Positions 36,987-55,683 of a DNA stretch of 64,000 bases are shown one piece after another. The stretch comes from Microgenomates group bacterium GW2011_GWC1_46_15 (GTDB taxonomy: Bacteria; Patescibacteriota; Microgenomatia; UBA1400; UBA12028), in the NCBI GenBank assembly GCA_001002285.1, contig LCLX01000002.1, positions 131,827-195,826 of the forward strand. The letters run 5' to 3'. Numbering within the stretch: position 1 is the stretch's first letter; the number at the start of each line of letters is the position of its first letter. Under the pieces are notes generated by a model. It made no database searches, was not told the origin of the DNA, and was given only the letters and a program-made list of their open reading frames with translations. The position numbers and the translations under genes are program-made.

Positions 36987-37127
36987 CTACCCTTTGAGTG
37001 CTTTGCGGAACTCACGGATTGCTTCGCCAATGCCGCGAACCAACTCGGGGATTTTCTTTCCGCCGAACAGGACCAACAGCACTACAGCGATGATAACAAT
37101 CTCGGTAGATCCAATGTTTTTAAACAT
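36987..37127 (-). CDS. tatA: twin-arginine translocase subunit TatA/E, copy 1 (46 aa; not in ORF track)
   Basis: MFKNIGSTEIVIIAVVLLVLFGGKKIPELVRGIGEAIREFRKALKG with AGGAG RBS; about 85% nt identical to copy at 54822. Confidence 0.7.
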   Translation of the reverse strand: MFKNIGSTEIVIIAVVLLVLFGGKKIPELVRGIGEAIREFRKALKG

Positions 37128-37138
37128 AGTGTCTCCTT

Positions 37139-37321
37139 TTATGCCTTTTTCTTTTCATCCTCGTCCAGAAGGGCTTCTTTCAAATCCTTACTGGCTTTTT
37201 TGAGCTCGCGGCCAGACTCTCCAAGGCCACGTGCAAAATCCGGCAACTTCTTCGCTCCAAACAGAAGCAAGAGGATGGCGGCAATAATAAGTATTTCGGG
37301 TGTCCCGATATTTTGAAACAT
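37139..37321 (-). CDS. tatA: twin-arginine translocase subunit TatA/E, copy 2
   Basis: MFQNIGTPEILIIAAILLLLFGAKKLPDFARGLGESGRELKKASKDLK...; AGGAG RBS. Confidence 0.8.
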   Translation of the reverse strand: MFQNIGTPEILIIAAILLLLFGAKKLPDFARGLGESGRELKKASKDLKEALLDEDEKKKA

Positions 37322-37516
37322 ACCACTCCTTTCTTTTCTTTATATGCGTACAGGCAGGGTCGTACTTCATTCATCCTACCCCACACCCTGATGAAAAAAC
37401 AAGGGGCAGGTCATTGTCCGCGCAAAAAAGAGCAAAATCTATACATATACATATTGACAAACTGCCCATATCTTTTTTACTGTAAGAAATACATACTATT
37501 GGATACCACCTCGTTT

Positions 37517-38587
37517 ATGATGAAAACCATTCTTTCTTTTTATAAAAATCTTCTCGTTATGCATGTTCTTATTTTGCTCATCGCTGTTGGCGCGACATTT
37601 GCGTCTTGGAAAATTGTTACTCTAACCATTCACGCGGAAAAACAACGTGTATTTAACCAGGAAAAAGATCAGGCGGCGCAGTGGCTTACGGAAAAGTTTT
37701 CATTATATTATTCTGTGTTAAGAAGTTTTCGGGCGTTTTGGTATAGCAATCCCCACGTTTCACAAAGTCAGTGGGAAAAATTTGTGAAAGATTCGGGAGT
37801 AATCAGTGAGTATCCTGGAATCTCATCGGTGTTTATGATCAAACGAGTACAACAGGAAGGCGCGCGCCCCTTAGAACAAGATATGCGGCGTATTTCCAAT
37901 CCTGCGTATAAAAAATACACTATCCATCCGGTAAAAAAGGATGCAGAGTACTATCTTGGATTCTATATTTATCCCACCGAAGGTCGGGAAACGGCGTTAG
38001 GCCTCGATCACCTCTCTATTCAAGACCGGCAAGAAAAACTTTTTCAGGCACGAGATACCGGAAATATTATGAACACGAGAGAAACACTGCTTTTGAATAC
38101 TGGACGACCAGGATTTTTTCTTGTCGCCCCACTGTACGACAATGCGGTACCACACGACACTGTTGACGGAAGAAGAAAAGCGTTCTGGGGATTTTCCGCC
38201 ATTTCTTTCCGGAGCAACGAGCTTTTTTCTTCTATTTATGGCAACGAAGACCCGTTCCCATTCCTCGACTTTGAGATATACGATGGAACACAAGTAACGC
38301 CGGAAAATTTACTCTATGACCATGACCGATCTCTCTCTGCTGTTACTCTTTCAAATGCATCCAAAATGACATATCAACAGGAACTCAAGCTTGACGACAA
38401 TCGTTGGACGATTGTTTTTGCAACGAAACCAAACTTTACGTTAGGCAAGTTTCAAGAAATTTTGCCGTGGATTGTGCTTGGGATTGGCGGAGTGTTTTCA
38501 GCATTTGTTATGTTTAATCTTATTCAATATGTTTTACAGATGAAAAAAATACGACAAACGAAAGAAAAAGAGGTTCTGAAAAATTAG
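37517..38587 (+). CDS. membrane protein with periplasmic CHASE-like sensor domain (TM-domain-TM, no output domain)
   Basis: N-terminal TM, about 290-aa extracytoplasmic region with ...ETALGLDHLSIQDRQEKLFQARDTGNIMNTRETLLLNTGRPGFFLVAPLY resembling the CHASE consensus, C-terminal TM; start at MMKTIL. Confidence 0.45.
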   Translation: MMKTILSFYKNLLVMHVLILLIAVGATFASWKIVTLTIHAEKQRVFNQEKDQAAQWLTEKFSLYYSVLRSFRAFWYSNPHVSQSQWEKFVKDSGVISEYPGISSVFMIKRVQQEGARPLEQDMRRISNPAYKKYTIHPVKKDAEYYLGFYIYPTEGRETALGLDHLSIQDRQEKLFQARDTGNIMNTRETLLLNTGRPGFFLVAPLYDNAVPHDTVDGRRKAFWGFSAISFRSNELFSSIYGNEDPFPFLDFEIYDGTQVTPENLLYDHDRSLSAVTLSNASKMTYQQELKLDDNRWTIVFATKPNFTLGKFQEILPWIVLGIGGVFSAFVMFNLIQYVLQMKKIRQTKEKEVLKN

Positions 38588-38691
38588 TATTGGTGAGTTC
38601 ATCGCAAATCACCAAACTTTTTTGACTCTTAATATATTCTACGTAGGTATGAGCAAATATGGCCGCCACCTTTCAATGGTAAGATTTTAAT

Positions 38692-40389
38692 ATGGCAGCT
38701 ATTGTTGTCCAACCTTTTGTCAGCAGATTTGAAACTCCCAGAGTGAAAATTAGTAATGAAGCTTTCGAAAATTCTGGCATTGAAATTTTTAGCTCCGAAC
38801 GGATACCTTTTTCGGACCGAACCGGGCCTAAAATTGCCCAAAACCTAACCAAAATGTTTGTCTCACGTGTACAAAACTTACAAAAAAGTAGTCATGACTT
38901 CCATATTTATGAGCTAGGAGCGGGTACTGGAATCTTGGCAAAAAGAATGCTTGATCTACTTAAAACCAACTATCCAAATATCTATTCCCAAACCAAGCTC
39001 CATCTTTCAGATATCTCCATGCCAGCGCTTACCCAGCTTAAAATGTTGAAAGATCTTAAGACACACAGCAGTCATATTTTATTTGAGGTTATAGACGCTC
39101 TAAATCCTAAATTCTCCCATAAACCGCTCCTAGTATATTTCACAAATCTCATTGACGCACTCCCCCACAACCGCCAAATTTTGGTCAAAAACGGTCAGAT
39201 TTTCGAATTTCAGGTTCAAACTACGCTTAAAAAGGATACCCAAATTGTTGACGCCACCTCTTATCCACCAAAAATTCTCGAAGGAAATAAAATCACCGAC
39301 CTTTTCTCTCCAAATAACATTAAAAGGAGAATAATTCTAGCACCTCAAATTCTTCAATCCTTGGAAGAAAAATCTCGATTCGTTCCTGTCGACGAAGTAT
39401 CAAATATGACTGAAAAAGAACGGGGAGATCTAAAAAACTTAGTAAAATCCAAGGACAACGGCGCTCCTTTTGTGTTTAATTATAACTATCCGGCCCGGCT
39501 GGCAATCATAAAAATGATTCGGGAATTGGAAAAGGGGGGGTTTATCTTTTTCTCGGACTTCGGCATTGCTGAAGGAACACTCGAAGAGGGTCTGCATCTG
39601 GAATGCGGTTTAACGATTTTTTTTACTGTAGACTTCCCTTCCTTTAAACAAATAGCACATACTGAGGGAGCATCTTGTTTTTTAACTTCCTATCTTCCGG
39701 GCTACCCGCAAGAAATGGTCATAGATACACTCCGTAATGATCTGACAATGGCAAATCTATTCCAAAAAGCTTCTATAGATTATCTTCAAGGCGAAGTAAG
39801 CGCTTTTTTGGAAAATGTTAAAACTGTTCTTTCCAATAGCCAAATGGCTAAAAATCAAAAATCAAAAAGGATTCACCATCTTTATAATTCTTTGTCTGTC
39901 GATGTAAGCCATAACTATCAACTGTTAAGTGATCTGCCTTATTTCTTCCTCCAGGCAGGTTTTTACAAAGATGCAGATTTTTATGCGGACATTCTCTATA
40001 ACCAGTATGGTCATTCTGTGGGAGTTTATTACGACATAATCAAAGGTAAGGTGCGGCAAGAAGAAGGCAATTTTAAAACCGCCGAGAAATTTTTTAAAGA
40101 GGCGGCCGAAAGCCACAAGGGATTTATAGCTTATGCGTATCTGGCCGAACTTTATTGGCAACATAAGCGCTACCCTGACTACGTTGAAGCTATTAAAAAG
40201 TATCTGAAATTCACCAGAAAAAGAGATCACCTAACAAGCCTGCTCTCAATCGCTTCAGCACAGGAGAAATATCTTGGTCCAGAAAAGGCCAAAAAAACTT
40301 TGGCGATTTTTATTAGTTTTGGGAAAAAATTAAAAAATCTTTCTTTATCAGAAAAAACATCTCTGGAACAAGCCCGCAGATTATTGTAA
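38692..40389 (+). CDS. class I SAM-dependent methyltransferase-like protein (MidA/DUF185-like) with helical C-terminal domain
   Basis: HIYELGAGTGILAKRMLDLL (motif I GxGxG), followed by DUF185-like architecture and a TPR-like C-terminus. Confidence 0.4.
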   Translation: MAAIVVQPFVSRFETPRVKISNEAFENSGIEIFSSERIPFSDRTGPKIAQNLTKMFVSRVQNLQKSSHDFHIYELGAGTGILAKRMLDLLKTNYPNIYSQTKLHLSDISMPALTQLKMLKDLKTHSSHILFEVIDALNPKFSHKPLLVYFTNLIDALPHNRQILVKNGQIFEFQVQTTLKKDTQIVDATSYPPKILEGNKITDLFSPNNIKRRIILAPQILQSLEEKSRFVPVDEVSNMTEKERGDLKNLVKSKDNGAPFVFNYNYPARLAIIKMIRELEKGGFIFFSDFGIAEGTLEEGLHLECGLTIFFTVDFPSFKQIAHTEGASCFLTSYLPGYPQEMVIDTLRNDLTMANLFQKASIDYLQGEVSAFLENVKTVLSNSQMAKNQKSKRIHHLYNSLSVDVSHNYQLLSDLPYFFLQAGFYKDADFYADILYNQYGHSVGVYYDIIKGKVRQEEGNFKTAEKFFKEAAESHKGFIAYAYLAELYWQHKRYPDYVEAIKKYLKFTRKRDHLTSLLSIASAQEKYLGPEKAKKTLAIFISFGKKLKNLSLSEKTSLEQARRLL

Positions 40390-40398
40390 GCTAAAAAT

Positions 40399-43065
40399 AT
40401 GGCGGGTACATTTTCTACCGATCTGACACCTATCAAAGCAGCGGAAGCGACCGCCGATTATTCTTTAGTCGGCACTTTAAAAAGCGCCATGGCGCTTAAT
40501 GACGACTATAAACTTGAAAGTACCAACTGCATCACTTGCGGTGTCAGCAGCGCCACTGGTACTGGTACCGCTAGCATACTGGCCTTGACTCCTTCTGCAA
40601 ATCTAAATCTAACTGGTGCAGGATACCATTTTTTTATGTGGATCAAAGGTATCGCTTGGCCGTCAATGGCCATAAGAGCGTCTGGAGGACTTGGTATGTC
40701 CATATCTTCAGATGCCCCACCAACGGCAGTTATTTCTGTTTTGTCAGCGGTTGTTGTCAATGGTGGAACTTCGGGGACATATGCAGTCAGTGACGTCTTA
40801 ACCGTTGTCGGAGGAACTGGTACCGCCGCAACACTTACGGTTACAGGAGTTAGCGCAGGCAAAGTGACGACCGTAATTCCTACTGCCTCCACCCGGGGAG
40901 CATATACAACCTTTCCCACAAACCCTGTTTCTGTTACAGGGGGTGGTGGTACAGGAGCCACTTTTACCCTCACTTCCATTAACACCACCACCAACACTAA
41001 ACAATGGTTTGTCGGAGGTAGTAATACAGATTCCGTCGTGGGCTGGACAAACTATGTGGTTGATATAGACGGTACACCGGATATTTCCATAGGTACTCCC
41101 GCTATGAACTCGGTTGACAGAATGGGTTTTCGTATGACAGCTACCGCAGTTGTGAAAGTAGCTAACTTCATTTTTGACGTTAGCCGGTATGGGAAAGGAA
41201 GTACTATAAATGACGGGACTGGTAGTGTTCCTGTCACCCTGGCCGATTACCAAGTATATGACAATGCCAATGCCCGCTCCTGGGGCGTTGTTACTACCCA
41301 AAATGGTATTTATTTTATCTGCGGAAAACTTAATATCGGAACGGTTGCCCAAAGCGCAGAGACGGTATTTAAGGAGCAAGCTAACGTCATCGTCTACCAG
41401 GATTTTCCCGTTGCATCAACTTTTTATGAAATTCTAGTTGTGGGAGCGAGCGCCCAAAAAACTACTTTTCAGCTAGGAAGTTATGACCCCGCTTCGGGAT
41501 TAACTTCAGGCGGGTGTACTATCAAAGGTTCTGGTAATGTCAACAGCTCGTCTCGAACTGATGGCACGGTAGGAATCGCCCACTCCGTTTGGACTCTTAC
41601 GGCCAGCGACGCCAACCAGGTAACCAAACTATACGCTTCAACCTTTTCCGAAATGCTTAGCGCGGCCTTAGCATACAACGCAGTTTCTATTGAACTGACC
41701 ACTAACTGCACCACCAATGGAACCGTCACGCTTGTGACATCCGACAGTTATGATACGTCCGGAATTGTGATCGGAATGAAAGTAACCGGCACAAATATCG
41801 ATGCCAATACTTACGTTTCGTCCATTGAAAGCGCTACTTCTTTAACTATGGATAAAGCCGCCACAGGTTCAGGGTCTTCACTCACCATGACCTTTACCCA
41901 CAACAACGAAATAAGGGGTTGTACTTTCTCAAATTTCGGCACCATCACAACCAACGGGTGTGTTATAGATAGTTGCACATTTCAAGACGTCAAAACCGGA
42001 GCGCCAATCAGTGCTACTTATGCGTTGATTGTGAACTCCACTACAGAAATGGGCAGGATCACTAACTCCAAATTTATTAACTGCAACCGCGCAATCAAAA
42101 TTACTACTGCGGGTGATTATACTTTTACCGGCAACACCTTCTCTGGAAACACGTACGATATCGAAAACTCGGCCGCCGGTGCCAATGTCACCGATATCTA
42201 TTCAGAAAGCAATTCCGATGGCACCATTGCACTCAACGACTCTACAATCGGAGTTTCTCAGTCGTTTACTGGCGATGGAAATAAATTGGCCAACGCTGTT
42301 TTCTACTTAAGCAAAACGAATGCTCCATCTGGGAATGCTGTCGCGAAAGTGTATGCGCATTCTGGTACTTTTGCTTCTAGTTCGCTTCCCACTGGAACTG
42401 CTTTGGCTACAAGTCGAAATGTTGACGTTACCGCTCTCACTGGTTCGCTTGCTCTCACTACTTTTTATTTTGGCGATCAGGGTCAAAACATTACCCTTAC
42501 AAACGGCACAAAATATGTTGTTACCATTGAATATAGTAGTGGAACTTCAAGCAATACTGTTAACGTTGGCCGTGATGCGAGTAGTGCTACAGCAGCCGGT
42601 AGCTGCGCAACCTTGGTCGGCACAACTTGGACTTCAACCGCAACTACTACCGACGCCTGCTTTTACGTACGTACTGGTGGCGTTGTTACAATCACTCTCG
42701 CTAGCGGATCAAATCCCTCCGCAAATAAGGTTTTGAACAGTAACGCTATTCCGGGCGCTATTACAATAAATACAGGTGTAAATATAACGGTCCATGTGCA
42801 AGATTCAAGTCAAGTCAATATAACAGGAGCCGGGGTTCAAATATTTCAGACTTCAACTCCAACGAATATTATCGCGAACACAACAACAGATGGCTCTGGT
42901 AACATCGTTGGAAGTACTACACTCTCCGTAGGGACAGGTCTTACTATTAGAGTCCGCAAATCTTCTAGTGGCACTCGATATGTCCCCGCAGAAACCACAA
43001 CCACCGTTCCTTCTGTAGACTCCACCATCACGGTTGTTCTTACTGTAGACACGATTGCCGCGTAG
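40399..43065 (+). CDS. giant Thr/Ser/Gly/Asn-rich protein with right-handed beta-helix repeats (tail-fibre/adhesin-like), no signal peptide
   Basis: 888 aa, no hydrophobic N-terminus; runs of GTGTA/TTTNT and pectate-lyase-like repeats ...NSTTEMGRITNSKFINCNRAIKITTAGDYTFTGNTFSGNTYDIENSAAG... Confidence 0.6.
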   Translation: MAGTFSTDLTPIKAAEATADYSLVGTLKSAMALNDDYKLESTNCITCGVSSATGTGTASILALTPSANLNLTGAGYHFFMWIKGIAWPSMAIRASGGLGMSISSDAPPTAVISVLSAVVVNGGTSGTYAVSDVLTVVGGTGTAATLTVTGVSAGKVTTVIPTASTRGAYTTFPTNPVSVTGGGGTGATFTLTSINTTTNTKQWFVGGSNTDSVVGWTNYVVDIDGTPDISIGTPAMNSVDRMGFRMTATAVVKVANFIFDVSRYGKGSTINDGTGSVPVTLADYQVYDNANARSWGVVTTQNGIYFICGKLNIGTVAQSAETVFKEQANVIVYQDFPVASTFYEILVVGASAQKTTFQLGSYDPASGLTSGGCTIKGSGNVNSSSRTDGTVGIAHSVWTLTASDANQVTKLYASTFSEMLSAALAYNAVSIELTTNCTTNGTVTLVTSDSYDTSGIVIGMKVTGTNIDANTYVSSIESATSLTMDKAATGSGSSLTMTFTHNNEIRGCTFSNFGTITTNGCVIDSCTFQDVKTGAPISATYALIVNSTTEMGRITNSKFINCNRAIKITTAGDYTFTGNTFSGNTYDIENSAAGANVTDIYSESNSDGTIALNDSTIGVSQSFTGDGNKLANAVFYLSKTNAPSGNAVAKVYAHSGTFASSSLPTGTALATSRNVDVTALTGSLALTTFYFGDQGQNITLTNGTKYVVTIEYSSGTSSNTVNVGRDASSATAAGSCATLVGTTWTSTATTTDACFYVRTGGVVTITLASGSNPSANKVLNSNAIPGAITINTGVNITVHVQDSSQVNITGAGVQIFQTSTPTNIIANTTTDGSGNIVGSTTLSVGTGLTIRVRKSSSGTRYVPAETTTTVPSVDSTITVVLTVDTIAA

Positions 43066-43107
43066 AAATGTGATGATATCGTTTTATAATCCTGCTATAC
43101 TCGCACT

Positions 43108-43620
43108 ATGCAAATCGTTGATATTAACGGAACAGAACGCACATGTTTAAAGGCGTTCCCTGACCCCGCATACCCTGGATATATGCGCGTTGAGTTCAGA
43201 ACTCACCATGAATGGTTCACGCTCAAAGAGTTTCTTTTTTTTAACCCCACGCTGAAAAACTTAATGGCTGGTGCTCCCAATCTTCCTGCCGATGATCTTG
43301 GAGTCGTTACATCATCCGGAAAAAACTTTATCAGAGATGCAAAGAAAAACTGGAAAGAAAACAGTTATATTGATTTCACGATTTGGATCTCGCGGGGGCT
43401 TGGTGAGGGACAAACACGAAGGGTGATGAGGAATACACGAAACACGGTCTATACCAATACACCTTGGAATACCAAACCAAATAAAACTTCTCAGTATTTA
43501 ATTTCACATGATATTCACGATGTGAAAGCGTTTGGAAATGTTCTTCCACAAATTGAACAGGCCGAATACGAAAGACGCGCTAAAGAAATGGATAAAAAGA
43601 AAGCACCACAAAAAAATTAA
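43108..43620 (+). CDS. hypothetical protein
   Basis: 170-aa ORF with Lys-rich C-terminus; no motif. Confidence 0.4.
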   Translation: MQIVDINGTERTCLKAFPDPAYPGYMRVEFRTHHEWFTLKEFLFFNPTLKNLMAGAPNLPADDLGVVTSSGKNFIRDAKKNWKENSYIDFTIWISRGLGEGQTRRVMRNTRNTVYTNTPWNTKPNKTSQYLISHDIHDVKAFGNVLPQIEQAEYERRAKEMDKKKAPQKN

Positions 43621-43631
43621 AAATATATACT

Positions 43632-44105
43632 ATGAAACTCGCAAAAGAATATCAGTTCCTCGTTATTATCAGCCTCTTTATTTTTGCGTACGTGCTCGAA
43701 GCGCTCGTGAATCCTCTGCAAATCAATCTTATTACTCCATACAGCTACCTTAACCCACAAATTCTTGCGAAGTACCCGTTTACAACCGCAATTATTGCGA
43801 TTAAAAGTATCGCGATCTTTTGGACCCCACTATTTCTTTTTTCTTTTATCCAGAAAGCATACGCCGCAAAGGGAAGCATTTTCCTTGTATTAGCCGGACT
43901 TCTCCAGTTATACTCACTCCAAGAAATCGCAACCGGTGCCCAAATTGTGCCACTGGAGTGGTCACTCGCGCTTTCTGTTGCGGGAATACTCCTTCTTATC
44001 CCAACCAGTCTTTTTTTCCTTCAGCATAGTTTTCATACAATGCGTGCGAAAATCCACTCGCCTACTCCTCCACCCATTGCTTCTCCACAAAAATCCACTC
44101 CTTGA
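43632..44105 (+). CDS. hypothetical membrane protein (about 4 TM)
   Basis: 157 aa, hydrophobic helices, Pro-rich C-terminus. Confidence 0.4.
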   Translation: MKLAKEYQFLVIISLFIFAYVLEALVNPLQINLITPYSYLNPQILAKYPFTTAIIAIKSIAIFWTPLFLFSFIQKAYAAKGSIFLVLAGLLQLYSLQEIATGAQIVPLEWSLALSVAGILLLIPTSLFFLQHSFHTMRAKIHSPTPPPIASPQKSTP

Positions 44106-44136
44106 CGCTGACCCTTCCTCTTACTACTATTGATGT

Positions 44137-44499
44137 ATGCACAAGCAATTTTTCGTGCTGGCTGACTACAGAGAAAAAAGCATACATTGGAAAGCGGGAA
44201 ATATTGTACTCGTGGATCCTGATATTGCAGTTCCATTTATTGGAACGATTCTTACCCCACTGTACTCTGCCATCAAAGCAGGTCTGTATCCACCGGCTCC
44301 GCAAGAGCCGCTTGCCATAAAAATGATGAAAAAGATGAAAGAAAATGTGAAAGAAATTGTTGGTATGCCGCCAGAATCATCAAAAAATCCTCCGCCCTCC
44401 TCACTTGGCTCAATCCTTGCGAAGAAAAAGTTTTTACAAAACGATATCCGAGCAAAAATTCAGGCAAAGAAAGCTGAACGCGCGCAAGGAAAGAGTTAG
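44137..44499 (+). CDS. hypothetical protein
   Basis: 120-aa ORF; Lys-rich C-terminus. Confidence 0.35.
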   Translation: MHKQFFVLADYREKSIHWKAGNIVLVDPDIAVPFIGTILTPLYSAIKAGLYPPAPQEPLAIKMMKKMKENVKEIVGMPPESSKNPPPSSLGSILAKKKFLQNDIRAKIQAKKAERAQGKS

Positions 44500-44573
44500 C
44501 TCTTGTAACTTTGTAGTGTATACATAATACTAAAACTTGATTATTGTGGAAGTAATGGCATAAAGAAACATAT

Positions 44574-47222: not shown

Positions 47223-47243
47223 TTCTCTTGCTATAATGTCCCC

Positions 47244-47771
47244 ATGGCATACGTTTTCAACTTTTACACACAGATTATTGACATAACAAATCCGCAGACA
47301 ACCGTGGTGATTCAAGACTTGATTAACGAGATCCGCACCCAGGAATCTTCGGCTACCGGTATGGCATATCCAAAAATCGCCGATGCAGGAGGAAAGGATA
47401 ATCTTGGAGGCGGAGTGAGTACAGGCATAACCATCACACTCTACCCAGACTGGCAGCTCCGTTTTTGGGCAGGAAGCTACATTGCCGATATCACCGGCGG
47501 CAACCTTGTGGGAGGTTTGGGTGGCAATCCATTTGCATATGTTGCGGGCGTACAAATCAAAGTTATTCAGTCTGCCGCTTCAACTATTGTTACCAGTGGC
47601 GGTTCTGCACTCACAACAGCAGAACACGATAAACTCATGTCCGGTCTCGATGCCACCATTCCCCCAGCCGTGTGGGAAGAGCTTCTTGCAAGCCACCAGA
47701 CGGCGGGAACAATGGGCAAAGCGCTCAAAGATATCAAAACAAAAGCAACGCTTGGCGCGATTAGTAAATAG
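47244..47771 (+). CDS. Gly-rich hypothetical protein (tail-fibre-like small partner)
   Basis: 175 aa, NLGGGVSTGITITLY...GGNLVGGLGGNPFAYVAGV; no signal peptide. Confidence 0.5.
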   Translation: MAYVFNFYTQIIDITNPQTTVVIQDLINEIRTQESSATGMAYPKIADAGGKDNLGGGVSTGITITLYPDWQLRFWAGSYIADITGGNLVGGLGGNPFAYVAGVQIKVIQSAASTIVTSGGSALTTAEHDKLMSGLDATIPPAVWEELLASHQTAGTMGKALKDIKTKATLGAISK

Positions 47772-47863
47772 TATAATTTTTTCTTCAAGACGTCTCTTGT
47801 TTTTCTCCTCTAATCTGCTTATGATGAATATCAGATTGTTGTATAGGAAAAAAGGAGGAAGAT

Positions 47864-48034
47864 ATGTTCCAAAATATCGGCACAACGGAAGTTGCCATTG
47901 TCGCGGTGCTTCTTTTGCTCTTGTTCGGAGGAAAAAAACTTCCAGAGCTTGGCAAAGGATTGGGTGAGGCAGCGCGTGAAATCCGCAAAGCGTTTACCGA
48001 GGACGATGCGTCTGAGAAGAAAAAGAAGTCATAA
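47864..48034 (+). CDS. tatA: twin-arginine translocase subunit TatA/E, copy 3 (56 aa; not in ORF track)
   Basis: MFQNIGTTEVAIVAVLLLLLFGGKKLPELGKGLGEAAREIRKAF...; AAGGAGG RBS. Confidence 0.8.
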   Translation: MFQNIGTTEVAIVAVLLLLLFGGKKLPELGKGLGEAAREIRKAFTEDDASEKKKKS

Positions 48035-48048
48035 AGAAAGGACTCGAT

Positions 48049-48189
48049 ATGTTTGCAAATATTGGCTTGAGAGAAATTCTCGTTTTGGTGTTGATCGCCG
48101 TGCTCCTGTTCAAAGGAGGAGAGTTGCTCCCAAGACTCATTCGCGGACTGGGTGATGCGGTACGCGAGTTCCGTAAATCATCCCGGTAA
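48049..48189 (+). CDS. tatA: twin-arginine translocase subunit TatA/E-like, copy 4 (46 aa, divergent)
   Basis: MFANIGLREILVLVLIAVLLFKGGELLPRLIRGLGDAVREFRKSSR. Confidence 0.65.
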   Translation: MFANIGLREILVLVLIAVLLFKGGELLPRLIRGLGDAVREFRKSSR

Positions 48190-48233
48190 CAATATAAAGG
48201 GGACGCGACCCATAGGGGATGTAACTTACCCGC

Positions 48234-50873
48234 ATGCAACATACTGCCGTAGCTATTAGGCGTTGGGTGATTGCTTTCGTTTGCAGTGTTTTGTTGTTCT
48301 CTCTTCTCTTTTTCTCCTCATCTCCAGTTCGCGCTATTAGTGCGGAGTATCAACAATGCCCCGTCAATACCAGTTGTACCGTTGGCGAGTTCTTATATGC
48401 CGATGACTACTCGCCCATTGCCGGTGCCACATGCACATACACCGCGCGCAAACCCGATGGAACGTTGTTTTTAAACGCCGTTGCCATGTCCGAAAGTTCG
48501 GATGGATGGTACGCATATAGCGTGAACGCCACAGGCGCGGTTTCTGGTCTCTACCGCGGAACCATCTGTTGTACTCCACCCGCCGACGCCCAAGTGTGTT
48601 TGGAAAAAAGTTTTGTTGTTGGCCCAGCGGACATGACCGCTACGGATGTCGCAAACGCGGTGTGGGATGCAACGCGCAGTTCACATACGACAACCGGTAG
48701 TTTTGGTGAAAATCTCCAGAACGCTACATCAATTACCGCCGCCGATGTTTGGAATTACTCGAGTAGAACGCTTTCTGGATTTGGCACACTGGCGAGCGAT
48801 GTGTGGGCAAACTCCACCCGCACGCTTTCTGGATTTGGTGATTTGGTATCGAGTATAACATCAAGCATTTGGGGAAATTCTTCAAGAACACTCACCAGCG
48901 GAACACTGAGCAATAGCGAATCGCTCGTAACTTCCTCGAGCACCACACAAAACATTACCGTTACCTACAACACCATTTCGCAACAACTCACCGAAACGCG
49001 GAGTTTGCTTGAGCGAGTCATTAATCAGCCCACTATTCAGTCATTTATTGATGATAAACCAACCGAAAGTCTTGAGTCTAAACTGCAAAAAACCGAGTCT
49101 ATGCTCCTTCAGGTGCAAGAACAGTCTACGCGAGCAATGAACACTATTGACCTCCTTGGTTTAACATGGTCAAGCGTCCAGCCAGATCAACTCACCCAAA
49201 AACTGTCCGATACTACAAAACTTTTAGGAACAAATCCTGATGATCCACACCCAGAAACGATGCTTGACAATGCACACATCCTCGCGTCACTCTGGAATAG
49301 CCTTGTCTTATCAAGCCTTTCGGATCAAACACAAGCAGCGCTGGTTTCTGCAAAGTCTGCGGAACAACAAGCGAAAAGCTCCGGAAAATCGTCTGCTACG
49401 CGCCAATCCCTTCAGGAAACATCAAAATTCCTCACTACGTTGACGCAACTCCTCGGTACCCCCGAAGATGCGTATACAAAACCAACTGCGTTTGGGTATC
49501 TTCATGATCTTCAACGAAAAGCACAGGCGTTACACGAGCAGGAACAGTCCGCACAAAACCTTCTTTCGGACTGGAAATCTATTGACACAAAAAACAGAAG
49601 CCAGTTGCTTGCCACACTATCCAAAGAAGTGTTTGCGATTAATGCCATTCCGCAAGGAATAGTGCTAACAACTCCCGCAAAGGTAGCACATAGTCCAGAA
49701 ATCAGCCAAAAGAACCAGGCGCTCGGCCTACAAGCGCTCATTTCCGCAAACAAACAGCTTCTCGCGCAAAATGCCAACGATCCGCTTAACTCGTACTGGC
49801 TTGAAGAAGGAAGTGTTATTTTCCGTTTCCTCCTCACCAATCCATCTTCAACCATTCGGCAAGATGTTCCCGTGAAATACTATCTCCCTCCAGAAGTGAT
49901 GAAGGAACACATTCTTACTATTGATACAGGGTTGACTATTGAGTATGACGCGGAAAAAAATACGTATTTTGCTTCTGGAACGTACTCCCTTGCCTCCCAG
50001 GAAACAAAAACAATCTCCATAGAAGTTGAGGATATCTGGGTTATTCAGGATTCGGATCTTCAAGCCATCAAAAAACAGGCCGAGGACCTGCTCAAACCAC
50101 TCCAAAAGACTTCGTACTATGCGCAAGGGGCTCTTTTGAAGTCCGATATTGATGTGGCAGTAGATAAAATCTCCGCAAATCAAAGCAAAGACCGCACACC
50201 AGACGCCCGTATCCGCGCATATCGGGAAAATGAAATCGAGCTGGTTGGTATTAAACAAAACATGAGCGCGCTTAAAAACATTGTTGCATCCGCAAGTTCA
50301 ACGGGCTCCATTTTTGGATTTGTGGGGAGTGTACAGGTTGTTGCTGTATGGGGCATTATCATCGTTCTCCTGGCGGGACTCACATATCTTGCGCTGTACA
50401 TGAAAGCTCTCCGGACAAAAATTGATATGCCAGAAAACTTAGAAAGTGCTTTACAGGGTGCCAATATTCCAACAAAAAGATACTATGAAAAACCCATTCC
50501 TGGCTGGAAGAAGGGCGTGTTTGTTCTTTTGTTTTTCCTTCTTACAGGAACAATTACTTCGGCTGTTTCTTCAGCATTCCTTGTGCAGTCAGACCAACAG
50601 AGTACAAAACAAATCGCTAGCACGACACGGGAAGAAAAACTGACGGTGCTTGGTGCGACAACAAAGGTACAACGTGCTACGTTACAAGGAAAAGTTCAAC
50701 CCGTTCCTATCTATACTTCTCCATCCTCCGAAAGCGAGATGTTGCATAGAATACCGGAAGATATTATCGTACAGATCAAAGGAAAGAAGTTTAATTGGAT
50801 ACAAATTCAATACACTTGGGGCGCGGGTGTATACATTGGCTGGGTACAAGATAACACGTTGAAAAAAGAGTAA
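48234..50873 (+). CDS. large secreted/membrane-anchored protein with RR-containing signal peptide, WxNxSxRTLSGFG repeats, coiled coils, 2 TM and C-terminal SH3b domain
   Basis: MQHTAVAIRRWVIAFVCSVLLFSLLFFSSSPVRA|ISAE signal; three about 19-aa repeats (VWNYSSRTLSGFG / VWANSTRTLSGFG / IWGNSSRTLTSG); TM helices near aa 690-760; C-terminal KFNWIQIQYTWGAGVYIGWVQ (SH3b-like). Confidence 0.6.
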   Translation: MQHTAVAIRRWVIAFVCSVLLFSLLFFSSSPVRAISAEYQQCPVNTSCTVGEFLYADDYSPIAGATCTYTARKPDGTLFLNAVAMSESSDGWYAYSVNATGAVSGLYRGTICCTPPADAQVCLEKSFVVGPADMTATDVANAVWDATRSSHTTTGSFGENLQNATSITAADVWNYSSRTLSGFGTLASDVWANSTRTLSGFGDLVSSITSSIWGNSSRTLTSGTLSNSESLVTSSSTTQNITVTYNTISQQLTETRSLLERVINQPTIQSFIDDKPTESLESKLQKTESMLLQVQEQSTRAMNTIDLLGLTWSSVQPDQLTQKLSDTTKLLGTNPDDPHPETMLDNAHILASLWNSLVLSSLSDQTQAALVSAKSAEQQAKSSGKSSATRQSLQETSKFLTTLTQLLGTPEDAYTKPTAFGYLHDLQRKAQALHEQEQSAQNLLSDWKSIDTKNRSQLLATLSKEVFAINAIPQGIVLTTPAKVAHSPEISQKNQALGLQALISANKQLLAQNANDPLNSYWLEEGSVIFRFLLTNPSSTIRQDVPVKYYLPPEVMKEHILTIDTGLTIEYDAEKNTYFASGTYSLASQETKTISIEVEDIWVIQDSDLQAIKKQAEDLLKPLQKTSYYAQGALLKSDIDVAVDKISANQSKDRTPDARIRAYRENEIELVGIKQNMSALKNIVASASSTGSIFGFVGSVQVVAVWGIIIVLLAGLTYLALYMKALRTKIDMPENLESALQGANIPTKRYYEKPIPGWKKGVFVLLFFLLTGTITSAVSSAFLVQSDQQSTKQIASTTREEKLTVLGATTKVQRATLQGKVQPVPIYTSPSSESEMLHRIPEDIIVQIKGKKFNWIQIQYTWGAGVYIGWVQDNTLKKE

Positions 50874-50881
50874 GAAGGCGA

Positions 50882-51316
50882 CTACTGCCAAACTCCCTGC
50901 CCTGCAACAACATTAAACAAGAAATGTATAAGCATTGCTCCTACTAGTCCCACAAACACCCACTTTCCTTTATTTGCGATACCAAGCCCCACCGCACCCA
51001 TTGTTACCGCGTGCATGGGTACTGTAAGGAATAGCCTGAAGAGGAGGGGCTCAAGCGATCCAAATTGAATGGCGCTCGGTAAAAAAAGCAGACTCTCAGA
51101 TAGGCCAAAAACTGCTCCAAAAAGGAGGGGGCGGTATGCCTTTCCCTCTGTATTTGTCCATCCAATTACCCGTAGCATGCCATACTTTGCAAACTCTTCA
51201 ACAAACCAAGGAACTGGAATGATGAACTCAAAAGGTACTGCAAATACAGGCAACATGACGGCAAACAGCGTTTGGGAGATAACTTGAGGAATGTTTGGTG
51301 TACGCCGGGCTGGCAT
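50882..51316 (-). CDS. CPBP-family intramembrane glutamic endopeptidase (CAAX protease/Abi-like)
   Basis: VEEFAKYGMLR (EExxxR), FGAVFGLSESLLF, MLIHFLFNVVAG (HxxxN) motifs; start at MPARR (the longer ORF may add 40 aa). Confidence 0.55.
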   Translation of the reverse strand: MPARRTPNIPQVISQTLFAVMLPVFAVPFEFIIPVPWFVEEFAKYGMLRVIGWTNTEGKAYRPLLFGAVFGLSESLLFLPSAIQFGSLEPLLFRLFLTVPMHAVTMGAVGLGIANKGKWVFVGLVGAMLIHFLFNVVAGQGVWQ

Positions 51317-51547
51317 ATATACAGTATACCCAATAACACAACTCTTTTCCTTTACACTCAACTCGTGCAAATATGCTCTCCGCAACTCTTTGGTTTTCTT
51401 TCGTCTATTTTTAACCTGAGTATGTATTGTGCTCAATTTTGGCCTCTTTTTGGTGATTTTTACTACCTTGCCGCGTGAAAACTTATACTCTTTGGTGTTC
51501 TCTCTTTAAACGAGATATCATACATATAAAACCCGTAGAAACTGTTT

Positions 51548-51728
51548 TTACAACTCTTTGCAACTTCTTACAATGCCCGGCCTTCTCCCCAAATCGCGGA
51601 AAATTTTTGCGTTTGATATATTTTTCCTTTTTTCCACACAACCGCCTATTTCCAGAGAAATATGTATTGACAACGGTTGTTTTTTTAGAGTAGTCTGAAG
51701 TTGTACAAAGTTGTAAGAATTTGTAAAG
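51548..51728 (+). promoter_or_regulatory. two sets of triple direct repeats at 10-bp phasing upstream of the HTH gene (putative operator/promoter)
   Basis: TTACAAC-tct-TTGCAAC-ttc-TTACAAT (51548-51575) and TTGTACAAAG-TTGTAAGAAT-TTGTAAAG (51701-51728), with TTGACA at about 51668 between them. Confidence 0.35.
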
Positions 51729-51736
51729 CATCAGAT

Positions 51737-52285
51737 ATGAATGAAATGTATACCGTCAAACAAGTTGCCGACATTCTTGGATTTTCCACGAACACAGTCT
51801 ACAAATATCTCAATGCTGGGATCATTCATACTTCACGCCCAGGACAGATGAAAAGTCGGTTTCGCATTTCAAAAAAGGCTTTGGAAGACTACCTTGGTGT
51901 TCCAATAGATGAATATAAGAGTGAAAAGCACGCGCGCGTTGAGCCTCTTTTTTCACAAGAGCACAGTTCTTCACAATCTCCGATAGAAACAGTGATCGTT
52001 GATGCAAACGCCCAAAAAATGGGCATTCCTGAGCCTCCTCTCGAGGTAAAGTCTGCTCATGAAGCTGGTACAGAAGACCATGAGGAGCACAATATTGCCC
52101 CATCTTTTGCTCTACGCACCACACGCGCTCTTCTTTTTATTACTTTAATTGGCGTCACATTAAACCTCGCTTTTTTTAGCCTTCCACATCCCATTACGCT
52201 TTTGTCGCAACTCCTGATTCTTTTTGTATTCTTGCTCTTGGCATACCAATATGGCGGAATGCACAAGAAAAAGGCAGTGGTATGA
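51737..52285 (+). CDS. membrane-anchored helix-turn-helix (excisionase/MerR-like HTH_17) DNA-binding protein
   Basis: MNEMYTVKQVADILGFSTNTVYKYLNAGII HTH; C-terminal TM helix LLFITLIGVTLNLAFF...; ATG preferred over the upstream TTG. Confidence 0.5.
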   Translation: MNEMYTVKQVADILGFSTNTVYKYLNAGIIHTSRPGQMKSRFRISKKALEDYLGVPIDEYKSEKHARVEPLFSQEHSSSQSPIETVIVDANAQKMGIPEPPLEVKSAHEAGTEDHEEHNIAPSFALRTTRALLFITLIGVTLNLAFFSLPHPITLLSQLLILFVFLLLAYQYGGMHKKKAVV

Positions 52286-52965
52286 AAAAAATTTCACCAG
52301 TTCTCCAGCGTTTTTTCCACCAATGGCAAATATTTTCCCCCGAGAAACAGTTTTCTCTTCTTTCCTCTGTTCTGGGGACATGCGTCGTGGTGATATCTGT
52401 TCTCTCTGTAGGTGTGTTGGCTCAACAGTATAAAATTCACCGCCTCACTACTCAACACATTGCGCTTCTCGAGAAACTCGGCGTTGTATCAACAACAATG
52501 GACGGTATTGCGCGCGATGGAAAATCCGCGATGGTCGCGCAGGAACTCCGCGCACTCCGCGACGAGGTTATTAAGTACCGCGCGGAACAGCAAGGAAGAG
52601 ATCAAATACTTGGCCTTTCTACCGGTCTTAATCTGCCGACACTCACCGATCCTCTTCAATCGCTCTCGAACACGCTCTCGACGCTTGAGGAAGCAACGAT
52701 TGAACCAACACTTACAATACCTCCTACGCAAACGACAAACCAACAAAATACTGGTGCGCACTTGGGAACTGTTTCTCTTCTCGAGGGAAAATCGTGGACA
52801 TCGGTTGACGCATTTGACCAAGCGCTTGCGTCTTCAAAAATTGTTGGCCAACTCGTTGTCCGCGTTTCTTACCCCTACTATGCAAAAGAGAACGGGTGGT
52901 ACCAAGTTGAACTCTCAAATGGGAAAAGAGGGTGGGTTCAAGAACAATTTGTGAAGGAGGACTAG
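52282..52965 (+). CDS. single-pass membrane protein with C-terminal SH3b-like domain
   Basis: TM helix SVLGTCVVVISVLSVGVLA; C-terminus VSYPYYAKENGWYQVELSNGKRGWVQ; ATGA overlap with the upstream gene. Confidence 0.5.
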   Translation: MKKISPVLQRFFHQWQIFSPEKQFSLLSSVLGTCVVVISVLSVGVLAQQYKIHRLTTQHIALLEKLGVVSTTMDGIARDGKSAMVAQELRALRDEVIKYRAEQQGRDQILGLSTGLNLPTLTDPLQSLSNTLSTLEEATIEPTLTIPPTQTTNQQNTGAHLGTVSLLEGKSWTSVDAFDQALASSKIVGQLVVRVSYPYYAKENGWYQVELSNGKRGWVQEQFVKED

Positions 52966-53378
52966 TGCGCCTGTACTCGCTTGCCCGCGCGATCGACCGC
53001 CTTTTTGTGTACTATGCGGTGATTTTTCTCGCCTTTTTTGTGTTTTTGTCATTCAGATCTGGGGTTTCTCCAACACAGTTCCTCATTTTTGTTCTTTTAC
53101 TCCCCGTTATATTTTATTTTTCGCACGCGTTTTGGAAGTACATTTATGGCATTGCTTCCAAAAAGCGTGGAGGGTGGGCGTTTTCATGGAAACACTTTTT
53201 TCTTCAAGACAGCGCACTATTTCTCTTAAGTATTTCTTTGTTTTCTATCGCGGTCAGCATCGCGTTTGTCCGCGTTACAGGTTCGTTTTTCCATACCCTC
53301 CAGGTTGAAGCCATTCAAACACCACAAACAACATCGGCCAAAACATCATTGCAACCGCCAGCAGAGGAAACGCCATGA
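52932..53378 (+). CDS. hypothetical membrane protein (GTG start; alternative GTG at 52966)
   Basis: 148 aa, 3-4 TM helices; overlaps neighbours on both sides. Confidence 0.35.
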   Translation: MGSRTICEGGLVRLYSLARAIDRLFVYYAVIFLAFFVFLSFRSGVSPTQFLIFVLLLPVIFYFSHAFWKYIYGIASKKRGGWAFSWKHFFLQDSALFLLSISLFSIAVSIAFVRVTGSFFHTLQVEAIQTPQTTSAKTSLQPPAEETP

Positions 53379-54058
53379 CAGGAATGGTTCTTCAGCTCTA
53401 TAGCTTTGTTGTCCTCACGAGTTTAGGCGTATGGATGCTAGAAAAAGCTCAATCTGGCGGAGATGTTTTTCTTGCATCGCTCTTTTTTCCGTTATCAATA
53501 TATCTGGCATTGCGGGTGTTTCACCGCATTGGCGGCGCGTTTGTTTCCCAGCCAAGCCATATCCCACGCGCGAATCCACATCATGAAACACAATTCCACC
53601 CTGCTGAGGGAAATAGCACGCAAACAATACCCACAGAACTCATTCAAGAACTTGAGCCCGACAAGGTTCCCATTGATATTGACCGCCGATTATTCTTAAA
53701 AATGATTGGCTCCGCGGGACTTGGTCTTTTTTTCGTGTCGATTTTCACAGAAAAAACACACGCCGCATTTTTTGGCAGCCTTCCTGGTACTTCTGGTATT
53801 CAGGTTAAAAATAAGCTTGGAGAAAAGATTGACCCCGCAGAAAAATACCCCACAGACGGATACACGATTACTGAAATTGACGATGCGACCTACCCCGCAT
53901 ACTACGGCTTTTTGCATACTTCCGGCGGATGGTACATCACTAAAGAAGCAAGCGACGGATCGTATCGGTATGCAAAGGGAGCATCTGCGTTTTCAACAAG
54001 TTGGGCTCTCCGTAATACAACCGTCACATATGGATATTACGACGCGGTGTTCTCGTAG
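53375..54058 (+). CDS. protein with internal twin-arginine (Tat) signal-like segment; N-terminal 2 TM, C-terminal about 110-aa beta-rich domain
   Basis: aa 100-135: PIDIDRRLFLKMIGSAGLGLFFVSIFTEKTHAAFF = S/T-RRxFLK consensus + h-region + AxA-like site, but located 100 aa into the ORF; immediately upstream of tatC. Confidence 0.5.
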   Translation: MTGMVLQLYSFVVLTSLGVWMLEKAQSGGDVFLASLFFPLSIYLALRVFHRIGGAFVSQPSHIPRANPHHETQFHPAEGNSTQTIPTELIQELEPDKVPIDIDRRLFLKMIGSAGLGLFFVSIFTEKTHAAFFGSLPGTSGIQVKNKLGEKIDPAEKYPTDGYTITEIDDATYPAYYGFLHTSGGWYITKEASDGSYRYAKGASAFSTSWALRNTTVTYGYYDAVFS

Positions 54059-54073
54059 TGTTTGAAGGAATAT

Positions 54074-54805
54074 ATGGCAGAAGAACACTCTCCCGAACAA
54101 ACCGCAGACCTCCTCCGACAAAACATGGTGAAGTATCTCCCCTATCTGCGAGAAGCACAAAAAAGAATGTGGATTACGATTGGTATTTTTATTATTGGTG
54201 GAACGCTCGGATTTTTTGGAAACCAACAGATTTTGGGTTTTGTGATGAAGCGGTTAAACCTCGTTGGGATTAACCTTGTGTTTACCTCTCCAACACAGTT
54301 TATTGATTTGGCATTTCAAACCGGCTTCATTATAGGAGCTCTTCTCGCAATCCCCTATCTTATCTACTGTGTTTTGAGTTTTGTTCTTCCCGCCCTGCGA
54401 AAAAAAGAACGCAGTATTATTCTTTCCCTTCTCCCTCTGAGCCTTGCGCTCACCGTGATCGGATTTGCGTTCGGCGTGTGGATTCAGCAGTTTGTGATCA
54501 CTATTTATTCCCAGACAACAACGAGTTTTAATATCAGCAATATGTGGGATGTTGGCCGTTTTTTCTCTCAGTTTGTGCTCATGGGACTTTCCATGGCACT
54601 TGTTTTCCAGCTTCCTATTGTGTTATCCATTCTCCTCCGCCTTGGGGTCATAAAACGGTCAGTATTGACATCGCGGAGAAGAATTGTGTATGCCGCCATC
54701 ATTATTTTTGCGACGATTCTACCGCCAACCGATATTCTTTCACTTACGCTTATCGTCCTTCCCCTTGTGTTTTTGTTTGAAGGAGCGCTACTATTGAATA
54801 AGTAG
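54074..54805 (+). CDS. tatC: twin-arginine translocase subunit TatC
   Basis: Six-TM TatC architecture, ...LREAQKRMWITIGIFIIGGTLGFF... and FQLPIVLSILLRLGVI; ATG at 54074 preferred over TTG at 54062. Confidence 0.85.
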   Translation: MAEEHSPEQTADLLRQNMVKYLPYLREAQKRMWITIGIFIIGGTLGFFGNQQILGFVMKRLNLVGINLVFTSPTQFIDLAFQTGFIIGALLAIPYLIYCVLSFVLPALRKKERSIILSLLPLSLALTVIGFAFGVWIQQFVITIYSQTTTSFNISNMWDVGRFFSQFVLMGLSMALVFQLPIVLSILLRLGVIKRSVLTSRRRIVYAAIIIFATILPPTDILSLTLIVLPLVFLFEGALLLNK

Positions 54806-54821
54806 TAAAGAAAGGAGCGAC

Positions 54822-54968
54822 ATGTTTCAAAATATTGGGACACCCGAGATTGTTATTGTTGCTCTCGTCCTCCTAGTCCTGTTCGGCGGAAAGAAAATCC
54901 CCGAGTTGGTCCGTGGGATTGGCGAGTCTATCCGCGAGTTCCGCAAAGGACTCAAGGACGAAAAGTAG
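54822..54968 (+). CDS. tatA: twin-arginine translocase subunit TatA/E, copy 5 (48 aa; not in ORF track)
   Basis: MFQNIGTPEIVIVALVLLVLFGGKKIPELVRGIGESIREFRKGLKDEK; AAGGAG RBS; 16 nt after tatC. Confidence 0.8.
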   Translation: MFQNIGTPEIVIVALVLLVLFGGKKIPELVRGIGESIREFRKGLKDEK

Positions 54969-55655: not shown

Positions 55656-55683
55656 TATGGAGACTCGTGGGTAATGTTGAAAT

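Follow-up and report, generated by a model that had tools for sequence, protein, structure and literature searches.

The minimal, Gram-positive type of twin-arginine translocation (Tat) system combines TatC with several TatA proteins, as in TatAd-Cd, TatAy-Cy, and TatAc of Bacillus subtilis. Bacteria of the candidate phyla radiation (CPR) have very small genomes with few cofactor enzymes as far as is known, and they are not known to encode the cofactor enzymes that usually account for Tat, so that its retention in these organisms is puzzling. The present analysis concerns a Tat locus (36987-54968) within a 64-kb stretch of DNA, referred to here as the window, from a metagenome-assembled genome (MAG) of Candidatus Pacebacteria (Microgenomates/Patescibacteria). 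The locus holds five tatA genes, a single tatC, a protein with an internal twin-arginine signal (p227), and giant proteins, G1 and G2, of a kind otherwise met only in phage tail modules. The Tat genes of a large CPR clade almost always lie beside such phage-derived giants and one conserved twin-arginine protein, a linkage that offers a concrete and testable job for Tat in these small genomes.

Domesticated phage tail machines include tailocins or pyocins, type VI secretion systems, and extracellular contractile injection systems. Signal-less proteins can leave the cell as hitchhikers on a partner that carries the Tat signal, with HybOC and DmsAB among the examples. PaoABC is an established case of this route (PMC4273604). 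Dual Sec-Tat membrane proteins, such as the actinobacterial Rieske protein, form another described class (PMC3471235, PMC5449189), in which basic residues following the last helix are a described feature (PMC5449189). Tat has also been reported in Microgenomatia as TatA plus TatC, noted only as present (PMC9166423). The parts of the locus, namely the TatAC translocase, the dual Sec-Tat topology, and the domesticated tail genes, are therefore known. Their combination is not described; no account of the cluster, or of Tat-linked phage-like proteins in CPR, was found in the literature.

Tat Genes and the Twin-Arginine Protein p227

The Tat genes and p227 occupy the following positions in the window.

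36987-37127, minus strand: tatA1, 46 aa; PF02416, 57.8 bits; TatA orthogroup '26', the same type as tatA5; Shine-Dalgarno sequence upstream
37139-37321, minus strand: tatA2, 60 aa; PF02416, 60.2 bits; TatA orthogroup '18' (...GESGRELKKASKE), 22 loci
47864-48034, plus strand: tatA3, 56 aa; PF02416, 53.2 bits; Shine-Dalgarno sequence upstream
48049-48189, plus strand: tatA4, 46 aa; PF02416, 31.3 bits; local hidden Markov model (HMM) E 3e-14
53375-54058, plus strand: p227; a pair of N-terminal membrane helices, then a disordered linker, an internal Tat motif, and a beta domain of ~95 aa
54062-54805, plus strand: tatC; PF00902, 133.8 bits (cut-off 25.1); probable start ATG 54074, giving 243 aa
54822-54968, plus strand: tatA5, 48 aa; PF02416, 56.1 bits; orthogroup '26'; inverted partner of tatA1

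All five TatA/E genes lie above the Pfam PF02416 cut-off (31-60 bits vs 21), and a six-frame HMM scan of the whole window found exactly five genes of the TatA type, which, together with the PF00902 match of the single tatC, confirms the inventory given in an earlier, sequence-only reading of this DNA (the original prediction). The features of the TatA family are present, including the N-terminal membrane helix, the FG hinge, and the amphipathic helix; the most divergent copy, tatA4, reads FKGGELLP in place of FGGKKLP. TatC matches TIGR00945 and TIGR01912 with E ~2e-32, yet remains under both equivalog cut-offs. Its longest open reading frame (ORF) encodes 247 aa, and databases use the start ATG at 54074. 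The TatA paralogs sort into orthogroups common to many loci (35 for the tatA1/tatA5 type and 22 for the 60-aa tatA2 type), which indicates that the multiplicity of TatA is old.

With TatC, TatA subunits, and a twin-arginine (RR) substrate, the block has the genes of a TatAC-type translocase, and transport of folded proteins is predicted. As in minimal TatAC systems, TatC is combined with TatA without a recognisable separate TatB, the substrate gene adjoins, and the motif is a canonical RRxFLK. The locus differs from those systems in pairing one TatC with two to eight TatA paralogs in old orthogroups, in having phage-derived giants as neighbors rather than cofactor enzymes or phosphatases, and in a signal that is found only within a membrane protein. 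The spacing of the junctions also agrees with a tight operon of six genes, HTH-SH3-p148-p227-tatC-tatA5 (HTH, helix-turn-helix), as had been proposed: three junctions have ATGA/TAGTG start-stop overlaps, and the others have spacers of 9-16 nt with Shine-Dalgarno sequences.

The product labelled only as an RR-motif protein in the original prediction is p227, and it emerges as the key gene of the locus. A scan of the window gave two twin-arginine candidates, p227 and the envelope protein G3 (described below). The p227 signal comprises DRRLFLK, the h-region MIGSAGLGLFFVSIF, and TEKTHA↓A. Its motif is found in all 20 locus homologs, and p227 is the only RR-motif family present in all cluster loci. 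In an alignment of 56 members the motif is RR in 53/56 and KR in 3/56, with R105 invariant and R104, F107, L108, and K109 conserved in at least 90%. The AlphaFold2 model places helices at 2-24, 28-56, and 102-124, with the arginine pair at 104-105 directly before the last helix, and this layout of helix pair, linker, motif, AxA site, and ~95-aa beta domain is kept in the homologs. p227 holds the only conserved twin-arginine signal of the cluster, and this signal is internal, following two membrane helices. The 447 members of the family all lack names, and every source that is named belongs to CPR.

The topology of p227 resembles that of dual Sec-Tat proteins in its upstream helices, in a last helix directly preceded by the twin-arginine motif, and in the basic residues that follow (consensus FTKKAxAA; an average of 1.7 K/R over the 14 residues from the h-region end onward). 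It differs in its ~95-aa beta domain, which lacks conserved Cys/His ligands, and in the AxA signal-peptidase-like site after the helix. No invariant Cys or His was found in the alignment of the C-domain and no Pfam domain was assigned to it, so cofactor ligands are not indicated. p227 is therefore described as working like the dual Sec-Tat proteins and is not filed as a member of that class.

Linkage of the Tat Genes to a Module with Phage Relatives

Upstream and downstream of tatA3 and tatA4 lie further members of the cluster.

40399-43065, plus strand: G1, 888 aa; Thr/Ser/Gly-rich, no signal peptide
43108-43620, plus strand: p170, soluble; its N-terminal ~60 aa share homology with a phage protein of ~70 aa (cluster c2)
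43632-44105, plus strand: p157, a four-helix membrane protein; cell-specific (25/75 genome loci, no viral locus)
44574-47222, plus strand: G2, 882 aa; all-beta, multi-domain, no signal peptide; core of the phage-derived module
47244-47771, plus strand: p175, a short tailspike-like form with a conserved N-terminal ~115-aa domain and a C-terminal tail
48234-50873, plus strand: G3, 879 aa; signal peptide, Cys-containing N-domain, helical region, two C-terminal membrane helices, SH3b
50882-51436, minus strand: p184, an intramembrane metalloprotease of the PrsW family; 144 aa (50882-51316) according to gene callers

Linkage was assessed in both directions. Among 75 loci with a G2 relative, taken from species-representative genomes (neighbors counted within 10 kb), tatC is present in 46/75, one to six tatA in 45/75, G3 in 31/75, p184 in 28/75, p157 in 25/75, p227 in 20/75, and p170 in 19/75. 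The converse set consists of 80 metagenome loci anchored on the closest relatives of the cluster TatCs, 15 of which have at least 5 kb on both sides. In these well-flanked loci p175 occurs in 15/15, G2 in 13/15, G3 and p184 in 14/15, and at least two tatA in 15/15; at least two tatA are found in 73 of all 80. The tat genes are linked both ways with G2, p175, G3, and p184 across Patescibacteria, and this two-way linkage, together with the cluster's own twin-arginine protein, upholds the proposal that the Tat system is dedicated to a local gene set. The co-divergence of G2 and TatC is moderate (Spearman 0.39, from non-independent pairs) and is not used as evidence.

The cluster is found in more than 60 Patescibacteria loci (loci are given L-numbers as labelled in this analysis) in the order HTH, p227, p170, p157, (G1), G2, p175, tatA×N, tatC, p184, G3. 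A fuller recurring order is HTH, (SH3), p227, (CHASE), p170, p157, (giants), G2, p175, tatA×N, tatC, tatA, p184, G3, (tatA). It recurs in Shapiro-, Roizman-, Woese-, Levy-, and Beckwithbacteria and in WWE3, and the loci include a complete 1.05-Mb Beckwithbacteria genome (L146). The gene next after p175 is tatA or tatC in more than 40 loci. The number of tatA copies per cluster is five in the window and two to eight elsewhere.

Relatives of the giants are found in viral contigs as well. G2 has at least 593 relatives, and 84 relatives were found in IMG/VR viral contigs (80 loci examined). tblastn matches to G1 occur in 42/80 viral loci (best, 34% over 387 aa, E 2e-44), with the viral G1-type gene directly upstream of the G2-type gene, and a p175-type gene lies directly downstream of the latter. 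Homologs of p175 are present in 59/80 viral loci, 55/75 genome loci, and 15/15 well-flanked TatC loci. The Tat proteins, G3, p157, p170, and p227 gave no tblastn match in the 80 viral loci. Profile comparison by hhalign related the N-terminus of p170 to the phage c2 protein (probability 97.6%, E 4.5e-12), the gene for which is directly upstream of the phage G1-type gene, and the C-domain of p227 to the C-terminal domain of the phage c3 protein (84.8%, E 6.5e-6); some c3 members carry collagen repeats, as judged by a Pfam match. The phage order c3, c2, (c4), G1, G2, p175 equals the cell order p227, p170, (p157), G1, G2, p175.

Phage structural genes are found with the viral modules. Upstream of the module in one locus (L035) are terminase and portal genes, with a glycosyltransferase adjoining the module; another locus (L005) has a Mu-type portal, and genes adjoining the module match 'tail protein' PHROGs in L058 (6.4e-48) and L009 (1e-11). 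Across 128 Tat-linked loci (1.57 Mb), the full set of viral-locus ORFs had counterparts only in the G and p175 families, plus c3 and c4 in two loci; the terminase and portal clusters of the viral loci had no match. The sharing of tail families without terminase or portal genes indicates that the module is domesticated rather than part of a decaying prophage. These data indicate a phage ancestry for G1, G2, p175, and the N-terminus of p170, and more weakly for the C-domain of p227.

The phage modules in IMG/VR (L035, L058, L009) thus resemble the cell cluster in holding five families in the same order (c3, c2, G1-, G2-, and p175-type), often beside glycosyltransferases. They differ in a c3-type protein without membrane anchor and Tat signal and in the missing neighbors tat, G3, p184, and p157. 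Like other domesticated tail machines, the cluster comprises tail-region genes that are kept by cells without head and packaging genes and are conserved under selection. In contrast to those machines, it has no recognised homologs of tube, sheath, tape-measure, or baseplate-hub proteins, retains a fibre/tailspike-like subset only, and is coupled to a protein translocase rather than to lysis or contraction.

The model of G2 (predicted local distance difference test [pLDDT] 89, predicted TM-score 0.80) is a string of small beta-sandwich-type domains, with structure matches to baseplate, tailspike, and Dit domains. In the original prediction all three giants were beta-helix proteins devoid of a signal peptide. 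The Thr/Gly/Ser-rich G1 and G2 do lack a signal peptide; the G2 model shows no beta-helix, and G3, which bears a signal, is unrelated to the other two. A beta-helix is instead a feature of the p175 family, most members of which are ~431 aa long and have a right-handed beta-helix between N-domain and tail, as in tailspikes. The window copy is without this helix, and the p175 homolog in L006 matches PF13229/PF05048. In many relatives (L006/L100 1295-9736, L101, L119, L125, L127, and L129) the gene upstream of G2 encodes a giant of 2100-3650 aa with G2-type domains, so that expansion of the module can yield very large proteins.

No informative match to G1, G2, p170, p157, p120, p175, or p227 came from Pfam, NCBIfam, PHROGs, or PADLOC. 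G1 had no match in Pfam, PHROG, or PDB, and PDB sequences gave none for G1 or G2 singly or for a profile of 56 G2 sequences. GenBank phages gave no tblastn match to G2, which means that its phage relatives are known only from metagenomic viral contigs. Relatives were also found in viral or binned contigs with the labels Dehalococcoidia, Archaeoglobales, Woesearchaeota, Desulfarculales, Planctomycetes, and Nitrososphaerota, none of which has Tat genes. The families G2, p227, p175, and G3, without annotation in the libraries searched, are now placed in a defined context.

Sugar-modifying genes were observed around the module. Nucleotide-sugar epimerase, aminotransferase, and glycosyltransferase genes flank it in viral loci (L041 3473-4531, 17450-18559, and 19611-20510; L035 6855-8039; L058 16305-17609), and one Microgenomates genome has four glycosyltransferases between p175 and tatC (L007 13216-19621). 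Because glycosyltransferases adjoin the module in phages and in this cell locus, the Thr-rich proteins may be glycosylated in both.

A Possible Export Route and Its Alternatives

Based on these findings, the block is read, at about even odds (a probability of roughly 0.5), as a domesticated phage tail/fibre module coupled to a multi-TatA translocase of its own, and as the form that a Microgenomatia-type CPR cluster takes in Pacebacteria. The cluster would consist of a minimal TatA-TatC translocase with several old TatA paralogs; of phage tail/fibre descendants in phage order (p227 C-domain, p170 N-domain, G1, G2, and p175); and of the cell-specific envelope genes G3/SH3b, p184, p157, and the membrane-tethered HTH protein. 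The arrangement suggests that the cell may use Tat to display fibres of phage origin on its surface.

A simple model would proceed from the fact that virion proteins fold and assemble in the cytoplasm, so that their display on the surface would need an exporter of folded proteins, for which Tat is the one known general route. Sec/YidC would insert the two N-terminal helices of p227, and Tat would then read the internal RRxFLK and move the folded C-terminal domain out, as in dual Sec-Tat proteins. The signal-less G1, G2, and p175 would be exported folded, bound to p227 or to each other, most simply as hitchhikers on p227, and the extra TatA copies may give pore capacity or specificity for cargo of ~95 kDa. 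Outside, G3/SH3b would hold the assembly at the envelope as an adhesin or fibre, possibly for attachment to host cells. Anchoring and regulation of the assembly would fall to the Sec-exported G3, the PrsW-like p184, p157, the membrane-tethered HTH protein, and the CHASE sensor. Known Tat hitchhikers are likewise signal-less proteins encoded beside a single twin-arginine subunit. The putative cargo differs from theirs in being non-enzymatic and ~95 kDa for each protein, and the carrier in being membrane-tethered.

The steps of this model are not equally probable. That G1, G2, and p175 cross the membrane via Tat is a tentative proposal that would sooner be doubted than assumed. Equally doubtful is the fuller picture, in which CPR would display a domesticated tail-fibre/tailspike module, exported folded, probably oligomeric, and riding on p227 through the multi-TatA translocase, as a host-attachment organelle. 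If the giants were Tat cargo, they would constitute a new cargo class of large, non-enzymatic structural proteins, and the multiplication of TatA would be explained. It would also be a new kind of phage-to-cell exaptation, with p227 itself a relative of a phage fibre knob, and the proteins would be candidate molecules for the attachment of Microgenomates to partners or surfaces.

Several observations weigh against this interpretation. No twin-arginine signal was found in any G1, G2, or p175 homolog across the loci; for a putative complex of these proteins with p227, gene adjacency and shared phage ancestry are suggestive. p227 lies within 10 kb in only 20/75 G2-anchored and 2/15 TatC-anchored loci, a low count that may be due to giant genes filling the flank. 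The lower hydrophobicity of the last helix described for dual Sec-Tat proteins was not seen in the Tat helix of p227 on the Kyte-Doolittle scale (2.02 vs 2.10 for the upstream helices; PMC5449189 used deltaG-app). The similarity between p227 and c3 is modest (84.8%, 56 aligned columns), the model of the p227 C-domain has only moderate confidence (pLDDT ~60-80), and the structure matches of G2 are domain-level only, with a TM-score of about 0.1. In a neighbor-joining tree of G2, viral and Tat-linked clades are interleaved without a single cellular clade, and the tree does not fix the direction or number of transfers. Finally, the TatC-anchored set was drawn from the nearest relatives of the cluster TatCs, so that linkage in this direction holds for their clade and not for every CPR Tat system.

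The main rival explanation holds that Tat serves only p227, and perhaps unlinked substrates, with the giants cytoplasmic or leaving by lysis, vesicles, or a pathway using p157, so that the linkage would reflect co-regulation of envelope or phage-interaction genes instead of a common export route. The restriction of the Tat signal to p227 is what this explanation predicts, and G3, which is linked just as tightly to tat yet has a Sec-type signal, demonstrates that linkage alone does not imply Tat export. Nevertheless, it is considered rather unlikely, given the position of p175 directly before tatA or tatC in more than 40 loci and its presence in 15/15 TatC-anchored loci, the apparent origin of p227 from the same phage module with its position kept, and the cofactor enzymes that usually account for Tat, which CPR are not known to encode. 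Transfer in the reverse direction, with G1, G2, and p175 as ancient surface proteins of Patescibacteria that were captured by phages, for example as receptor-binding modules, would fit the interleaved G2 clades and a sequence conservation that is highest among the cellular copies. This is improbable in view of the Tat-less relatives in contigs with the six labels named above, the five families standing in phage gene order among tail genes, and the lack of a secretion signal on the proteins, as expected of virion proteins.

Two further alternatives treat the block as a recent or mobile arrival. A degraded or cryptic prophage beside the Tat genes by chance could account for relatives of G1, G2, and p175 in phage tail modules, for a slightly lower GC (guanine-plus-cytosine) content at the left end of the region, and for a nearby AbiEii toxin gene, but it is very improbable: the same non-phage neighbors recur in more than 60 divergent loci, and terminase, portal, and capsid homologs are absent from the 128 Tat-linked loci. 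PHROGs revealed no head or packaging genes in the window block and no match for any window protein tested, and no integrase domain was found in the proteins scanned. The neighbors of the block in the window are housekeeping genes, and cluster and flanks are syntenic in a second species. The view that this is not a classical prophage therefore stands; of the combination that was to count against it, phage homologs together with hidden head genes, the homologs exist for G1, G2, and p175 and the head genes nearby do not. Least probable is a mobile or invertible block bounded by tatA1 and tatA5, or copies created by faulty assembly. The inverted copies at the ends of the segment are real (134 nt, 83% nucleotide identity; 84% for the protein), a tatA relic at 35917-35942 records earlier rearrangement at tatA genes, and the window departs in gene order, through rearrangement, from the nearest contiguous clusters (L088, L090, and L092). 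However, the repeat begins and ends with the coding sequence, its mismatches (17% divergence) are scattered along the genes, each copy has its own ribosome-binding site, and both belong to an old orthogroup of 35 loci. A match confined to coding sequence indicates paralogy and not the boundary of a mobile element. No recombinase, integrase, or transposase domain was found among the window proteins scanned, and no inversion isomer among four assemblies and 23 contigs, which have a single orientation throughout. The same arrangement in four independent assemblies and in the second Pacebacteria species shows that it is not an assembly artefact. The relic indicates that past rearrangements touched tatA genes, and such traces are history, not current mobility.

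Accessory Genes, Assemblies, and Flanks

The remaining features of the locus are as follows.

35917-35942, minus strand: tatA 3'-end relic, ...EFCKALKG-stop, tatA1-like (translation and blastn)
37313-38587, plus strand: CHASE sensor; PF03924, E 1.6e-34; membrane protein, no output domain
38692-40389, plus strand: MidA-like methyltransferase (Methyltransf_28), 565 aa; PF02636, E 1.3e-17; ends 9 nt before G1
44137-44499, plus strand: p120, small, Lys/Pro-rich; closest relatives only
51701-52285, plus strand: HTH_17 regulator; PF12728, E 1.6e-11; two C-terminal membrane helices (membrane-tethered transcription factor)
52282-52965, plus strand: SH3b membrane protein; C-terminal SH3b, PF08239, E 6.8e-7; ATGA overlap with the HTH gene
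52965-53378, plus strand: p148/p137, small membrane protein; start-stop overlaps on both sides

G3, a cell-specific protein without relationship to G1 or G2, occurs in 14/15 TatC-anchored loci and no viral locus. Its C-terminal SH3b is a weak SH3_4 match. The protein has W-x-N-S-x-R-T-L repeats. Tandem repeats of 54 nt (window 48743-48838) encode D-V-W-x-x-S-x-R-T-L-S-G-F-G units, at least three of which follow the Cys-containing N-domain. The window copy reads AIRRWVIAF, and G3 was considered as a Tat substrate and rejected, with 30 orthologs carrying Lys-rich Sec-type signals and no RR.

The adjoining p184, present in 14/15 TatC-anchored loci and always next to G3, had been taken for a CPBP protease and proves to be of the PrsW family: 12/15 family members match PF13367 (best E 5e-9), with the window copy at 20.2 bits, below the 23.5 cut-off. 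Its invariant EExxK, H, and HxxxN correspond to E80, E81, K84, H142, H171, and N175. An M50 (site-2-type) peptidase at 34666-35283 (plus strand) lies near p184 (site-1-type) and the membrane-tethered HTH_17 regulator, and the three could form a regulated-intramembrane-proteolysis switch for the cluster.

The other assignments of the original prediction in this group agree with the domain matches, namely the CHASE-like sensor (1.6e-34), the MidA-like methyltransferase (1.3e-17), and the HTH and SH3b proteins (HTH_17 and SH3_3). The longest ORF of the CHASE gene starts at 37313, with gene callers starting at 37391 or 37517, and the gene is an occasional member of the cluster (L089, L092, L146, and L175). 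The HTH_17 regulator heads the cluster in L088, L090, L092, L094-096, and L146. The MidA/NDUFAF7-like methyltransferase has a long helical C-terminal extension and is rarely in the cluster, its gene being followed by G1 otherwise only in L147 (Roizmanbacteria); it may modify G1.

The relic forms part of a 26-nt direct repeat (D5, 92% identical), the other copy of which is the 3' end of tatA1 (36988-37013). The repeat brackets ~1 kb with the AbiEii toxin gene (36245-36901; PF08843, 5e-21), as though a toxin-antitoxin cassette had been inserted where a tatA gene ends or duplicated together with that end.

The same 22.6 kb were recovered base for base in contigs from ENA, NCBI (two assemblies), and JGI, and G2 is identical to a GenBank protein of the source organism. 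One assembly, L003 (GCA_003524785.1), lacks 147, 68, and 52 bp relative to L001 (locus positions 13335-13481, 16120-16187, and 21040-21091; window 47908-48054, 50693-50760, and 55613-55664); apart from this the four assemblies are identical. The first deletion joins tatA3 and tatA4 into a 42-aa hybrid, and G3 is shortened in L003. These deletions are either real population variation or an assembly defect. The second Pacebacteria species shares this arrangement and the housekeeping genes that flank it, with G2 83% and p227 87% identical. Many MAGs labelled 'uncultured Pseudomonadales' or 'Gammaproteobacteria' (L088, L089, L092-L096, and others) hold a Patescibacteria-type cluster with 45-70% identity to the window proteins, and these taxon labels look unreliable.

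Downstream of the block lie tRNA genes for Trp, Thr, Tyr, and Thr (56917-56991, 58669-58741, 61441-61524, and 62170-62242), the nearest ~1.9 kb past its end. The ORF at 56900-58417 overlaps tRNA-Trp, which places its true start farther downstream (gene callers give 455-502 aa). A divergent pair of D-Ala-D-Ala-ligase-family genes stands side by side at 58744-59895 (minus strand) and 60069-61067 (plus strand) and is also present in the related species (L243).

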